Positions 1-33,734 of a DNA stretch of 33,734 nt are shown piece after piece. The DNA lies in assembly GCA_034670305.1 (NCBI GenBank), contig JAXMNT010000071.1, forward strand, positions 1 through 33,734. Reading direction: 5' to 3'. This DNA is from Deltaproteobacteria bacterium. GTDB taxonomy: Bacteria > Myxococcota_A > Polyangia > Polyangiales > Houyiibacteriaceae. A program made the translations under genes and the position numbers. The notes beneath the pieces were generated by a model. The model was not told the origin of the DNA. It saw nothing but the letters and a program-made list of their open reading frames with translations, and did not search any database. Position 1 is the first letter of the stretch. Each line of letters begins with the position of its first letter.

Positions 1-121
1 GAGCAAGGTTGCCCTGACAGCTGTCGCCCGGAAGCTACTCACCGTCCTCAACGCCATGATCCGCAGCGGCACCGACTGGTCACCCGAGGTGACTTGAGTC
101 GCGGCTGCGAATACAGTTGCT
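1..121 (+). mobile_element. Right end of IS110-family insertion sequence
   Basis: Short 24-nt tail after the transposase stop ending ...ATACAGTTGCT, resembling IS110-group right ends that finish in a CT core. Exact boundary is inferred. Confidence 0.65.
2..97 (+). CDS. IS110-family transposase/recombinase, C-terminal fragment (truncated by window edge)
   Basis: Manual translation from base 2 gives SKVALTAVARKLLTVLNAMIRSGTDWSPEVT*, matching the typical IS110 C-terminus (KxAxxAxxRKLLxxLxAMxRxxxxW). TGA at 95-97. Confidence 0.85.
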   Translation, partial: SKVALTAVARKLLTVLNAMIRSGTDWSPEVT

Positions 122-125
122 GCTA

Positions 126-190
126 GGGCAAGGGCAAGGGCAGGGGCAGGGGCAAGGGAGCAGGTCGCCGCCTTCGGCGGCTCCTGCTAC
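126..190 (-). repeat. REP-like family A copy 1: GTAG-hairpin plus CCCTTG tract
   Basis: Minus strand reads GTAGCAGGAGCCGCC-GAA-GGCGGCGACCTGCT-CCCTTGCCCCTGCCCCTGCCCTTGCCCTTGCCC; homologous to 31247-31307 and 33611-33670. Confidence 0.85.
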
Positions 191-30262: not shown

Positions 30263-31249
30263 ATGCCCGCTGATGTGCACGCGTTCGAGGGCATCGAAGG
30301 ACAGCACACGGCGATCGGTGTGCTCACCCGCGCGCTCGCAGCCAACCGACTGGCCAGCGCGTACCTCTTCGAAGGCCCGAGCGGGGTCGGCAAACAACTG
30401 GCCGCCATCGCACTCGCCAAGGCGGCGATCGGGGAAGCAGCCTGGCGCCGCATCGGCCTCGGCGTGCACCCGGACGTACGCGTCTTCGAACCGCGCGAAG
30501 ACGGTGCGCGGAACATCCGCGTCGAACGATTGCGCGAAGACATCCTGCCGCACGCGGAGTTCGCTCCGTTCGAAGCGCCGCATTCGTTCCTGATCTTTCC
30601 AGAGTGCGATGTCTCCTTCCCGCAGCAACACCAGCAGAGCGCCAACACGCTGCTCAAGACGCTCGAGGAGCCCAAACGCGGCGTGACCTTCCTGCTGCTC
30701 AGTGAGCGACCGGACCGGTTGCTGCCGACCATTCGAAGCCGCTGCCAACAACTGCGGTTCAACCGCCTCGAACCAGATGTCATCGAACGCATCTTGGTCG
30801 CACACGAGGTCCCGCCCGAGCGACGGGGTGCTGCGGCCGCACTCGCAGATGGCCGGGCCGATCGCGCGCTCCTTCTGGCCGAAGAGGGCTACGCCGATGC
30901 GCTTCTGGATCTCGCGCTTCGGGTTGACGAAGCGCTCGGGAGAAACCGCCCCGGCACCCTGATCGAGTTGGCGTCGGAGCTCGCCAAACACGACGACACG
31001 CCGCTCGCCCTCGACACGCTGTGTTTGTTCTACCGCGACGTGGCCGCCGCGGCGCTCGGACGCCCCTCGGAGTCCCTCGCGTTCCGGCACGTCGCCGACC
31101 TCGTGTTCGAGCGGGCCGCCAAGGTCGGCGCGCGGATCGCGAGCGAGCGGGTGGCGGCGGTTCAGCGGGTGTTGCGCGAAGACCTCCCGCACAACGCCAA
31201 CCCCGCCATCGCCATGGACGGACTGCTCTACCAGATGCAGTCGCTGTAG
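30263..31249 (+). CDS. holB: DNA polymerase III delta-prime subunit
   Basis: AYLFEGPSGVGK, HPDV, ANTLLKTLEEP, LLPTIRSRCQ; upstream of metG. Confidence 0.88.
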   Translation: MPADVHAFEGIEGQHTAIGVLTRALAANRLASAYLFEGPSGVGKQLAAIALAKAAIGEAAWRRIGLGVHPDVRVFEPREDGARNIRVERLREDILPHAEFAPFEAPHSFLIFPECDVSFPQQHQQSANTLLKTLEEPKRGVTFLLLSERPDRLLPTIRSRCQQLRFNRLEPDVIERILVAHEVPPERRGAAAALADGRADRALLLAEEGYADALLDLALRVDEALGRNRPGTLIELASELAKHDDTPLALDTLCLFYRDVAAAALGRPSESLAFRHVADLVFERAAKVGARIASERVAAVQRVLREDLPHNANPAIAMDGLLYQMQSL

Positions 31250-31307
31250 CAGGTCGCTGAAAAAGCGACCTGCTCCCTTGCCGTTGCCCTTGCCCGTGCC
31301 CTTGCCC
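31247..31307 (+). repeat. REP-like family A copy 2
   Basis: AGCAGGTCGCT-GAAAA-AGCGACCTGCT perfect 11-bp stem plus CCCTTG tract; starts at the holB TAG. Confidence 0.92.
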
Positions 31308-31423
31308 CCGAGTGGTCATTCGGTCGGTCGCCCCCGACGAACACCAATGCCGGCGCGGGTTCGACCACCCTTGGATAAGTGAAGGCGCATCGTGGACGTC
31401 AGTGACCATGACCGAACCGACAC

Positions 31424-31454
31424 AGGGCAAGGGCAAAGGCAAGGGCAAGGGCAA
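31424..31454 (+). repeat. (GGGCAA)n tract inverted relative to 31275-31307
   Basis: GGGCAAGGGCAAAGGCAAGGGCAAGGGCAAG. Confidence 0.85.
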
Positions 31455-31603
31455 GACGGGCCGCGTCGAATATTCTTGGGGGCACGGCCCCCAAACCCCG
31501 TCCGTGACACGGCTTGCTCGCTTCGCTCGGCTTCGCCGCGTCGGATATCAGCGACTCCTCGCGTGGCGTGCGCTCGGCCGGGTGGTTATACGATCGGCCT
31601 CCC

Positions 31604-33613
31604 ATGCGACCCTTCTACGTCACGACGCCGATCTACTACGTCAACGACGTGCCCCACATCGGGCATGCCTACTCCACCATCGCGAGCGATGTGTTGGCGA
31701 GGTACGCGCGGATGCGCGGGCGGCCGACGCGATTTCTGACCGGGACCGACGAGCACGGTCAGAAGATCGAACAGAAGGCGAGTGAGCTCGGCAAAGCACC
31801 GCAGGCGTTCGTGGACGAGATGTCGCCTCCGTTCCGCGAGGCGTTCGAGCAGCTCGACTGCTCGTTCGACGACTACATTCGAACCACCGAACCCCGGCAC
31901 GAGCAGAAGGTGGCGCAGCTCTGGAACACGCTGCGCGAGAACGGCGACATCTACCTCGGCGAGTACGAGGGCTGGTACTCGGTCTCGGACGAAGCGTTCA
32001 TCACCGAACACGAGATGTCGCTTCTCGACGAGGTGACCAAGAGCAAGGTCCAGAAGGTCAAGGAGTCGAGCTACTTCTTCAAGCTCAGCGCGTACACCGA
32101 CCGACTCCTCGAGTTCTACGAACAGCACCCGACCTTCGTGCAGCCGGAAGGCCGCTTCAACGAAGTGAAAGCGTTCGTGAAGGAAGGTCTGCGCGATCTC
32201 TCGATCTCCCGCACCACGTTCCAGTGGGGCGTGCCCGTACCCGGCGACGACAAGCACGTCATGTACGTGTGGCTCGACGCGCTGACCAACTACATCAGCG
32301 CGCTCGGCGGCCCGGCCGAACCCGGCGAAGCGCCGCTCTTCGATCAGTTCTGGGGCAAGGACGCCGACGTCATCCACATCGTCGGCAAAGACATCCTGCG
32401 TTTCCACGCCATCTACTGGCCGGCGTTTCTCCTCAGCGCCGGCATCGAGCCGCCTGGTCAGGTGTGGGCCCATGGCTGGCTGACCATCAACGGCGAGAAG
32501 ATGAGCAAGCGCCTCGGAAACTTCATCCCGCCTGGACCGCTCGCGGATGCGTTCGGCGTGGACGTCGTCCGGTACTACCTGATGCGCGAGGTCGGCTTCG
32601 GACAGGACGGCGACTTCGCGCACAAGAACGTGCTCGCCCGGTACAACGGGGAGCTGGCGAACGGGCTCGGCAACCTGCTCAACCGGATGGTGACGAGCAT
32701 CGTGAAGCGGAACCTGGGCGGCATCGTGCCGGCTGGAGACGGCGCGATCCTTCCCGAGGACCAGGCGCTCATCGACACCGCCAAGCGCGTCGCCGAGACC
32801 ACCGCGACGCACCTTCAGGCCATCGCACCGCACCGCGCGCTGGACGCGATCTGGGAGCTCGTCGGCGCGGGCAACCGGTACATCGACCAAACCGCGCCGT
32901 GGGCGCTTGCGAAGTCGGGCGACACCGAACGGCTCGGTCAGGTCGCGTACACGGTCCTCGAAACGCTCCGCTGGTTGAGCGTGCTCATCGCGCCGTTCAT
33001 GCCGACCAAATCCGCGGAGCTGCGCGCACAGCTCGGCCTCGAACCCTTGGCGCCGGCCGTTGGTGAGGACCAGTGGCCCGACGCCTGGGGCCAGCTGGCG
33101 GGCGGCACGGTCACCCAGCCCGCCGAAGCGCTCTTCCCCCGGCTCGACAAGAAGGCCGAAGCCGCCCTGCTCGAATCGCTCGGTGTGCACGAAACCACCG
33201 ACGCGCCCGCCAAGAAGAAGCAGGCCAAGAAGTCGAAGTCCAAGCCGACATCCGAGACGAAGAAGGGCCCCGCGGAGAGCAACGGGTTCGCCACGTTCGA
33301 CGACTTCATGAAGGTCGAACTCAAGGTCGGCCTGGTGCTCGAAGCCGAAGCGGTTCCGAAGAGCGACAAGCTGGTCAAACTCGCGATCGATCTCGGCGAA
33401 GACGCGCCCCGTCAGGTGCTCGCAGGCATTCGCAAGCACTACGCGCCGGAACAGCTCGTCGGCAAGCGGGTCGTGGTCGTCGCGAACCTTGCGCCGCGCA
33501 AGATCATGGGACTGGAGAGCCAGGGCATGGTGCTCGCCGCAAGCGACGACGAAAGCGGCCTGAGCGTCCTCGCCCTCGAAAAGCCCATCGCCCCGGGCAC
33601 CCGCGTCAGCTAG
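31604..33613 (+). CDS. metG: Methionine--tRNA ligase with C-terminal tRNA-binding OB domain
   Basis: FYVTTPIYYVN, HIGH, GTDEHG, YVWLDAL, GKDI, KMSK, C-terminal VVVANLAPRKIMGLESQGM. Confidence 0.97.
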   Translation: MRPFYVTTPIYYVNDVPHIGHAYSTIASDVLARYARMRGRPTRFLTGTDEHGQKIEQKASELGKAPQAFVDEMSPPFREAFEQLDCSFDDYIRTTEPRHEQKVAQLWNTLRENGDIYLGEYEGWYSVSDEAFITEHEMSLLDEVTKSKVQKVKESSYFFKLSAYTDRLLEFYEQHPTFVQPEGRFNEVKAFVKEGLRDLSISRTTFQWGVPVPGDDKHVMYVWLDALTNYISALGGPAEPGEAPLFDQFWGKDADVIHIVGKDILRFHAIYWPAFLLSAGIEPPGQVWAHGWLTINGEKMSKRLGNFIPPGPLADAFGVDVVRYYLMREVGFGQDGDFAHKNVLARYNGELANGLGNLLNRMVTSIVKRNLGGIVPAGDGAILPEDQALIDTAKRVAETTATHLQAIAPHRALDAIWELVGAGNRYIDQTAPWALAKSGDTERLGQVAYTVLETLRWLSVLIAPFMPTKSAELRAQLGLEPLAPAVGEDQWPDAWGQLAGGTVTQPAEALFPRLDKKAEAALLESLGVHETTDAPAKKKQAKKSKSKPTSETKKGPAESNGFATFDDFMKVELKVGLVLEAEAVPKSDKLVKLAIDLGEDAPRQVLAGIRKHYAPEQLVGKRVVVVANLAPRKIMGLESQGMVLAASDDESGLSVLALEKPIAPGTRVS

Positions 33614-33670
33614 CAGGTCGCTGAAAAGCGACCTGCTCCCTTGCCGTTGCCCTTGCCCGTGCCCTTGCCC
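33611..33670 (+). repeat. REP-like family A copy 3
   Basis: Identical to 31247-31307 except for one fewer loop A; starts at the metG TAG. Confidence 0.92.
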
Positions 33671-33734
33671 GCGTCGTGGACGCCGTGTGTTTCGCGACGG
33701 CGAGGCGCGAATCGGAGCGCGATGCCCAGCGGAC

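Follow-up and report, generated by a model that had tools for sequence, protein, structure and literature searches.

The right end of an IS110-group element at the contig edge

The DNA examined here is contig JAXMNT010000071.1 (positions 1 to 33,734, forward strand) of a Deltaproteobacteria bacterium assembly (GCA_034670305.1; Polyangiales, Myxococcota), and this whole stretch of 33,734 nucleotides is referred to as the window. Its left edge carries part of an insertion sequence (IS) of the IS110 group. We describe this element, the RNA predicted in its left end, and the high-copy repeat in which it sits, which we call family A. The window holds only the last 121 nt of the IS, its left edge being a contig end.

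On the plus strand, positions 2-97 encode in frame 2 the C-terminus of an IS110-family recombinase, 31 codons followed by a TGA stop (95-97), with the remainder of the gene lying left of the contig end. The translation (SKVALTAVARKLLTVLNAMIRSGTDWSPEVT) matches positions 320-342 of the 343-position NCBIfam model NF033542, 'IS110 family RNA-guided transposase' (E 4.9e-5). The gene is followed by a non-coding right end of 22 nt (98-119, +), by the core dinucleotide CT of the right junction (120-121, +), and by GCTAG, the right half of the target (122-126, +). Aligned with the ends of two relatives, namely the element of G012 (a one-contig Polyangiales metagenome-assembled genome, MAG) and L047 (from a Myxococcota MAG), the right end proved to share its terminal segment (111-119, ATACAGTTG).

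The right end of the G012 element reads TAA-ATACAGTTGCT and passes into CCCCC(C)-hairpin sequences, in which one copy departs from another by compensatory changes. The right ends of the window IS and L047 both read ...GAATACAGTTGCT, followed in the window IS by GCTAG. Since the terminus ATACAGTTG-CT is common to all three elements and the DNA beyond it differs from one element to the next, the IS stops at CT (120-121), and GCTAG is therefore target DNA. The interrupted family-A terminal repeat, counted with its flanking TA, ends in the four bases GCTA (122-125), and the final G comes from the (C)TA(G) insertion site. GCTAG is the same at all four known right junctions and is followed by immediate divergence, unrelated DNA lying beyond it in contigs C85 and C55 of the same assembly and in the metagenome record L034. 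The core CT also precedes the left end in contig C99 (L049:476-477), and the same arrangement of CT is found in G012, L047, L021 and L032.

Window positions 1-126/127 are 100% identical to the ends of C85 and C55, well beyond what chance would give. Throughout this assembly (G000; 7.93 Mb, 105 contigs, 68% G+C, 96% complete), in which the window is contig C71 and window position 1 its first base, the contig ends of one repeat have exactly 127 identical bases, and the smallest contig is 2063 bp. This is the pattern left by a final word size of 127 and a length filter of about 2 kb, because of which repeats shorter than 2 kb are seen only as their last 127 bases at contig ends. A Pfam domain search of G000 found neither IS110 domain (PF01548, PF02371); the IS body is therefore unassembled rather than absent, as contigs from the sequencing runs confirm. 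At least four elements shorter than 2 kb are missing from the assembly, and its poor state is explained by family A, to which about 123 of the 210 contig ends belong.

An intact recombinase gene in the source samples

Four runs of one study contain the window DNA (0.97-0.99 of sampled words). Three of the four may be the source of the assembly; the runs were kept as contigs and are not independent support. A scan of metagenome contigs for an exact match to 25 nt of the right end returned one record, L034, which is a 99.7%-identical copy of the IS body with the same right end and a 316-residue open reading frame (ORF; L034:81-1031). This ORF contains both PF01548 (N-terminal DEDD RuvC-like domain, 72.3 bits) and PF02371 (C-terminal Transposase_20, 68.4 bits), and scores 198.5 bits against NF033542 (cut-off 140). 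Its catalytic candidates D16, E58, D100, D103 and S237-G238 (residue numbers counted by hand) lie within motifs conserved in the alignment with the ISCro4 transposase.

Over L034:1-1300, each of the four runs yielded a single contig of 1206 nt (1219 in X3) that covers L034:1-1060 and stops exactly at the G of GCTAG (126). These contigs differ from L034 by three substitutions and no indels, two of the substitutions (943, 945) being the window's own letters. Because they cover the recombinase gene without indels, the gene is present and unbroken in the organism's own samples. The IS contig is 2.7-3.1 times as deep as the flank contigs of 11-12.5 kb (50.2/16.9, 38.8/13.8-14.4, 39.1/12.6 and 74.7/24.3). 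Contig depth is a rough guide only, and the ratio agrees with the three contig ends in giving about three copies of the IS in G000.

The left end (201 nt), ORF (951 nt) and right end (22 nt) add up to 1174 bp, or about 1176 bp with one CT, and window positions 1-121 are the right end of this IS. In every sequence-level feature that could be assessed, it is a member of the IS110 group. The preliminary description, made from the letters of the window alone, had recognised an IS110-like C-terminus at 2-97, a right end near position 121, and a hexamer tract with a hairpin after the four bases GCTA. The NF033542 match, the common terminus ending at CT before GCTAG, and the unit at 126-190 uphold all three, and the two domains it had anticipated in the upstream ORF are both present in that of L034.

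The left end and the left junction

Motifs conserved in the left ends of the relatives occur at one place in G000, the last 102 nt of contig C99. The surrounding locus (L049, C99:10200-10778) comprises a gene ending GAC-TAG and then a family-A MITE (miniature inverted-repeat transposable element) of about 250 bp, made up of a type-1 end, a short interior and a type-2 end. The type-2 end closes with ...GCGTTCTTCAGCAGC-CT at 477, and from 478 the left end of the IS follows (TGTATGTGCGCG..., beginning TGTATGTG). These 102 nt (L049:478-579) are homologous to the left ends of G012 and L047. Joined to the GCTAG of the window, the C99 left flank ...TTCAGCAGC-CT gives an intact tip, TTCAGCAGC-CT-GCTAG; the restored tip TTCAGCAGCCTGCTAG (CAGCAGC-CT + GCTAG) is present unoccupied 26 times in the genome.

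Contig ends extend this picture to further copies. The last 127-mer of C99 starts at L049:453, one base past an A at 452 that is specific to C99 (G in the family), and 26 nt before the junction. Because the C99 path merges right after this private base, the 25 nt that precede the IS (453-477) must recur unchanged in one or more further copies. The source-run contig, which on the right equals the part common to all copies, extends 146 nt left of L034:1, and this length is the sum of the 102-nt C99 left end, a 19-nt gap and the 25 nt of common flank. A gap of 19 nt is also what separates L049 and L034 when both are aligned to complete relatives. All copies are preceded by a family-A tip and have at least 25 nt of left flank in common, as judged for two of the three from contig ends.

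The only other three-copy sets among the 210 contig ends have GTA(A/C)GTCCTCT inverted ends and an IS66-like C-terminus, the latter a presumed assignment, and no such set could be a left end flanked by unique DNA. The left end measures about 201 nt (102 nt in L049, the gap of about 19 nt and 80 nt in L034), versus 22 nt for the right end. The matching lengths, the homology with complete relatives and the fit between guide and target described below all suggest that the C99 left end and the window right end are parts of one element.

A left-end RNA whose guide matches the insertion site

The left ends fold into two stem-loops. Across 5 sequences, pairing has persisted at 13 of the 49 consensus pairs although both partners have changed. 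In the first stem-loop of the G000 element, the 5' loop strand reads ...GTTCAGC-CT-G, in the sense of CAGC-CT, and the 3' strand, past a small hairpin, reads GT-CTAGC-AG, the antisense of CT-GCTAG. As the reverse complement of GCTAG plus the core, the CTAGCAG loop predicts GCTAG at all four right junctions. The second stem-loop conserves AACAGTTGC, in the sense of the right end, together with CAAG, the antisense of CT-TG and thus of the first bases of the left end, including in L034:5-14. The donor segments ACAGTTGC (ACAGTTG of the right end plus C) and CAAG match the element's own ends, ...ACAGTTG-CT-TG.... Of these, ACAGTTGC runs in the same sense as the right-end terminus and is a candidate left-donor site; the second core position of this left donor segment is C, not T.

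This organisation can be read against that of IS621. According to PMC11208160, IS110-group elements carry their RNA in a long left end. The left target guide of IS621 is there described as top-strand sense and the right target guide as antisense, with the CT core in all four pairings, and the wild-type 11-bp target (ATCAGGCCTAC) as split 7 + 2 around the core. The donor loop is built like the target loop, its left donor measuring 7 bp and its right donor 2 bp (PMC11208160).

Of the 301 genomes covered by a protein search (G000 and 300 others from its order), 27 had matches, G000 among them. The best complete relative is the G012 element (68% protein identity), with five full copies and one truncated copy. 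At the DNA level, 40 relatives yielded no more than one degenerate fragment, in G019. The relatives have the same left-end RNA architecture, and G012, L047 and L032 end in (A/C)ACAGTTG-CT, L021 in ...GGTTG-CT; the right end of L047 is 160 nt long.

Guides and junctions were compared in six elements over nine variable positions, the five G012 copies forming one row and L034 being without a target loop. In the G000 element (C99/window), the left guide CAGC-CT and the antisense right guide CTAGC agree with the site CAGC-CT-GCTAG at 9/9 positions. L047 also reaches 9/9, with left guide CAAC-CT and antisense right guide CTAGC on the site ...CACCAAC-CT / GCTAG, as does G012, with AAAC-CT and GGGGG on ...GCAAAAC-CT / CCCCC. 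L021 (genome G267) has guides CAGC-CT and CTAGC and scores 8/9 on ...AACACC-CT / GCTAG, in a hairpin tip, and L032 (G285), with GACG-CT and GCGAC, scores 7/9 on ...CAACG-CT / GACGC. The truncated sixth G012 copy, L045, lacks part of the gene and the right end and was scored on four positions, its right guide not being scorable; its left guide AAGT-CT matches ...GAAAGT-CT at 4/4. L022 (G077) was left out, as its left junction is not locatable and its right flank fits only partly. Each guide agrees with its own junction at a mean of 94%, compared with 35% (maximum 56%, 24 pairs) across different target classes.

L047 and L021 thus share the right guide and the GCTAG site of the G000 element, and the other elements have other targets: AAAC-CT-CCCCC for G012, in its own repeat family; AAGT-CT-GTTAA, a predicted site, for L045; and ACG-CT-GACGC for L032, beside a hexamer tract. 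The five full G012 copies (L035-L039) lie inside that repeat family, which displays a GCCTTCGG-type tract, hairpins and ...GGTTTTAGCAAAAC-CT-CCCCCCAAACTACGTTTGGGG.... From the compensatory differences between G012 repeat units, the targeting of repeats is seen to characterise the clade. The L047 contig begins (L047:1-240) with ~100 nt that are the reverse complement of its own IS left end and are separated from it by ~170 nt bounded by inverted arms (GGTGAGAAAGGCGAC...GTCGCCTTTCTCACC); these are either head-to-head IS copies in both tips of a small MITE or an assembly artefact.

The site predicted by the G000 guide is strongly concentrated in family A. The 11-bp sequence CAGCCTGCTAG occurs 32 times in G000, compared with about 5.5 expected from base composition, and 30 of the 32 occurrences are family-A tips; of the 337 CTGCTAG sites in the genome, 226 are such tips. 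CAGC-CT-GCTAG in G000 is almost exclusively the outer tip of the family-A type-2 terminal inverted repeat. Taken with the junctions and the guides, this makes it very probable that the window element is an IS110-group IS whose left-end RNA aims it at family-A type-2 tips, where it integrates at the 11-bp CAGC-CT-GCTAG.

In the proposed mechanism, the recombinase and the left-end RNA would recognise the circularised junction of right end and left end via the donor loop, the target loop would recognise CAGC-CT-GCTAG, and strands would be exchanged at CT. Insertion would split the tip, so that ...TTCAGCAGC-CT borders the IS on the left and GCTA(G) on the right, with the IS 5 nt inside the outer end of the repeat. 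Transcription of the RNA, RNA-guided integration and a circular intermediate are all presumed here from sequence.

Family A as the probable terminal inverted repeat of a mobile element

Family-A sequences make up 65 of the 210 contig ends in one end type and 58 in the other, and 10 more fall into three variant clusters (6, 2 and 2). A further 141 units with tips lie inside contigs, bringing the family to over 260 ends, and about 60 near-identical copies break the assembly. Both end types are 65-80 nt long and contain a GGGCAA tract and a hairpin, finishing CCTGCTA. All 21 assembled inverted pairs (180-713 bp) are bounded by TA...TA, with C before the left TA in 16/21 and G after the right TA in 17/21.

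Longer copies (C14:16222-16832, C1:298445-299113 and C9:103637-104350) carry an ORF of the 23S_rRNA_IVP / 'four helix bundle protein' type (PF05635, 67.1 versus 33.8 bits; TIGR02436, 73.7 versus 24). In the assembled part of G000, PF05635 matches 47 times, and 39 of these matches exceed the cut-off. The longer copies show no transposase, and DDE_3 (PF13358) has no match in the 96%-complete assembly, where elements shorter than 2 kb are not assembled. The literature searched, supplements excepted, holds no TA-flanked high-copy element with a PF05635 gene as sole cargo.

On this organisation, family A appears to be the terminal inverted repeat of a TA-duplicating, transposase-less, non-autonomous element, or MITE, with many deletion derivatives, the duplication of TA being suggested by the TA-bounded pairs. 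We liken this to IS630/Tc1-like behaviour, presuming a CTAG/TA habit in that family. Assignment to a host repeat of the repetitive extragenic palindromic (REP) or bacterial interspersed mosaic element (BIME) type was rejected in view of the TA-bounded inverted pairs, the 65-80-nt ends, the cargo ORF and the high copy number.

Several elements of the preliminary description have to be revised in this light. It had regarded the repeat as a host REP, and the label gives way to that of a mobile element's terminal repeat. It had also seen the IS as programmed against this repeat family. The match of the target loop with the family-A tip bears out the programming, and the occupied unit proves to lie beyond the window, on the left side of the IS, with only its last bases GCTA(G) (122-126) falling within the window. 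The unit at 126-190, which had given rise to the proposal, is a neighbour and not the target; nor is the GGGCAA tract a feature of the target, the recognised site being the outer tip CAGC-CT-GCTAG. The bridge RNA does belong to the IS left end upstream of the recombinase, as had been proposed, but about 1 kb further left than the position just beside the window that had been suggested. C99 and L034 each supply one piece of its region, about 19 nt between the two being unseen, and its predicted folding presents a target loop (CAGC-CT / CTAGC-AG) that matches the junction. As to the flanks of other copies, which it had expected to be related if the targeting was real, those on the right are unrelated (C85, C55, L034) and the one held in common is on the left, the family-A tip.

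Alternative explanations

Several observations weigh against RNA-directed insertion at family-A tips. Beyond the core, the left guide matches over 3-6 nt only, compared with 7 nt in IS621, and two relatives mismatch their own sites (L021 at 8/9, L032 at 7/9). The RNAalifold covariation term is small (-0.48 kcal/mol, from only 5 sequences). The commonest tips of the genome mismatch the guide, TTCAGCAAC (61 sites) at one position and TTCAGCGAC (106 sites) at two. The C99 left end does not overlap L034 or the window, the ~19 nt between them having never been seen, and the left junction is visible as sequence in one of three copies, the other two being deduced from contig ends. Pfam gives no match for the 31-residue window peptide alone. 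Neither a circular junction nor an empty-site allele is reported from the runs, which consist of contigs and so say nothing either way.

Could the IS have entered family A once and been carried along since? A single insertion, with the composite then spread by the family-A machinery or by segmental duplication, would imply no RNA targeting. It would account for the 25 nt or more of left flank that all copies have in common, for right flanks that in all four cases begin TA-G/N as at any family-A insertion, and for the regeneration of the tip's outermost CTGCTA beyond the IS. Yet a single nucleotide 26 nt before the junction distinguishes the C99 host from one or more of the other hosts, and a composite of this kind would have its terminal repeat split by 1.2 kb, with only 6 nt left at the outer end. 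The relatives, moreover, sit at the same position of different tips, and their left guide changes with the site (CAAC in L047, CAGC in G000, and other sites in G012, L045 and L032). We regard such carriage as improbable.

Still less probable is that the C99 left end comes from another IS110-type element, in which case the guide read from C99 would not be that of the window element. The exact length fit (25 + 102 + 19 = 146 nt), with a gap equal to that in the alignment to complete relatives, speaks against a second element, even though L049:478-579 and L034:1-80 share no sequence, other unassembled repeats exist in the genome, and a stray right-end-like remnant lies at C60:19153. The C99 guide CTAGCAG, furthermore, predicts the GCTAG of all four right junctions; the complete relatives L047 and L021 combine such a left end with such a right end and GCTAG; and none of the remaining three-copy sets of contig ends would do as a left end.

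The identity of the three G000 copies and L034 up to position 126, with divergence beyond, would also be expected if the IS ended at CTAG (126) and inserted unguided, its resemblance to the tip being coincidental. This we consider very improbable indeed, given that the G012 relative has the common terminus only up to CT, that the C99 junction plus GCTAG restores an intact tip, that guides match their own sites in six elements, and that the mechanism published for the family is RNA-guided (PMC11208160). Insertion directed by the left-end RNA at the type-2 tip is the reading that we retain.

Comparison with known systems

The element resembles IS621 of E. coli in its RuvC-like DEDD domain and Ser-Gly of the Tnp domain, its CT core, its RNA in the longer left end with the target loop preceding the donor loop, and a donor read as about 7 nt + 2 nt around the core (here ACAGTTG-CT-TG). 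The catalytic set given for IS621 is D11, E60, D102, D105 and S241, with G242 (PMC11208158). The two proteins are distant in sequence, although the alignment is nearly full-length (phmmer E 8.5e-33). The elements differ further in the guide, which has about 4 nt (range 3-6) left of the core and 5 nt right of it rather than 7 + 2, and in the host, here Myxococcota, and the target, here the tip of a MITE terminal repeat. Among solved structures the best match is the ISCro4 transposase (PDB 9t56; residues 7-311 of 316, E 2.8e-35), for which only the protein was compared and in which the GxDV, EAT, KTDxxDA and SG motifs are conserved.

Parallels in insertion habit come from other IS110-family elements. 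IS4321/IS5075 likewise have a preferred site inside the terminal inverted repeat of another mobile element, but belong to the IS1111 group (subterminal inverted repeats, RNA in the right end) and involve another class of host transposon and other bacteria. ISPpu9/ISPpu10 of Pseudomonas putida are similar in that all copies lie in a multi-copy, hairpin-forming intergenic repeat; theirs are REP or conserved intergenic sequences, unlike the TA-flanked inverted-repeat element with an interior gene and deletion derivatives found here. The literature searched, without its supplements, yielded nothing on IS110-type elements in Myxococcota or on MITE tips as their targets. IS110-family insertion in REPs and in transposon terminal repeats is already on record.

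Family-A units in the window and other repeats of the genome

Next to the IS, positions 126-190 (+) hold a diverged, solitary family-A-like unit, a bystander composed of a hexamer tract (GGGCAAGGGCAA..., 126-158), a hairpin (159-188) and the tip CCTGCTAC (183-190). This tip, GCTC-CT-GCTAC, mismatches the guide-predicted CAGC-CT-GCTAG at 3 of the 9 variable positions, and the junction CTGCTAGGGCAAG occurs once in the genome. The unoccupied family-A copies that the preliminary description had noted at 31247 and 33611 are indeed there, both on the minus strand. The first (31247-31311) is a type-1 unit with the tip TTCAGCGAC-CT-GCTAC, which differs from the guide at three positions, and a partial unit in the opposite orientation follows at 31424-31455. 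The second (33611-33734), with the tip TTCAGCGAC-CT-GCTAG (two differences from the guide), is the type-1 end of a high-copy family-A element running off the right contig end; this end is identical to the right end of C63 over 127 nt and belongs to the cluster of 58 ends.

The TA(G) of a family-A tip forms the TAG stop of an adjacent gene in all four places inspected (window 187-189, 31247-31249 and 33611-33613; L049:227-229). The TAG at 187-189 (minus strand) ends the ORF 187-867, and those at 31247 and 33611 end upstream ORFs (plus strand at 31247). Such stops fit insertion at (C)TA(G), which is rare at 68% G+C (3230 CTAG counts, both strands).

Searches for further traces of the IS gave a mixed yield. 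A right-end search with two mismatches was too noisy to use, apart from two hits. At C60:19153 (L050), an isolated internal CGAATACAGTTGCT-GCTAG-A has neither a recombinase gene nor a family-A unit on its left side and is a possible relic of a right end of this IS. At C3:89622, a family-A-like unit with a GGGCAA tract and a long hairpin around a GCTTCGG tract has the tip ATGCAGTTG-CT-GCTAG, which resembles the IS right end joined to its target. A donor-loop-like repeat (C20:46339, C31:84090, the minus strand of C59, and the ends of C63 and C105) was set aside as a conserved intergenic segment of ~250 nt, present at least five times; it adjoins the start of a gene in divergent orientation, and nothing there points to an IS.

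In two relatives, Rfam sX15 (RF02234) scores 44.7 bits (L017:2453-2616, +) and 31.2 bits (L015:2465-2631, +). Both values fall short of the gathering score, 55, and both matches lie on the strand that does not carry the recombinase gene and the left-end RNA. The left-end RNA was on these grounds not assigned to sX15, which is kept as a lead only. The sX15 and asX7 RNAs of Xanthomonas are complementary small RNAs with 10 homologues in S. maltophilia; the pair may mark the left end of an IS110-type element.

Two more unassembled elements adjoin hexamer tracts. Element Y, in four copies (ends C14_L, C2_R, C51_L and C88_L; C11_R, C15_R, C21_R and C50_L), has GGGCAAGG on both sides in 4/4, which places it inside the hexamer tract of family-A-like units, through either an 8-bp duplication or site-specific insertion. 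A three-copy element (C25_R, C68_R and C72_R; C50_R, C73_R and C83_L) has inverted ends reading GTA(A/C)GTCCTCT, and in one copy it lies directly against a hexamer tract of the GGAAGC type. The protein C-terminus preceding one of its ends is presumably IS66-like.

Implications

The element leaves the known mechanism unchanged. It adds a natural pair of bridge RNA and target, CAGC-CT-GCTAG, from a phylum outside the studied examples, and three more guide classes in close relatives (G012, L032 and, by prediction, L045) that could serve as orthogonal systems. Family A, for its part, is relabelled from a 'host REP' to a mobile element that supplies TAG stops to neighbouring genes. An RNA-guided IS nested in the terminal repeat of another mobile element would occupy a safe harbour that multiplies with its host element.

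A broader reading, which we put forward tentatively and rate at somewhat under an even chance, is that Polyangiales-type Myxococcota harbour a clade of small (316-residue) bridge recombinases that parasitise TA-flanked MITEs and 'four-helix-bundle gene' elements, with asymmetric guides of about 4 + 5 nt that are retuned as hairpin tips diverge. If this is true, the guide/target pairs of the clade would form a natural orthogonal series, and an RNA-guided IS would be seen to co-diversify with the repeat that hosts it.

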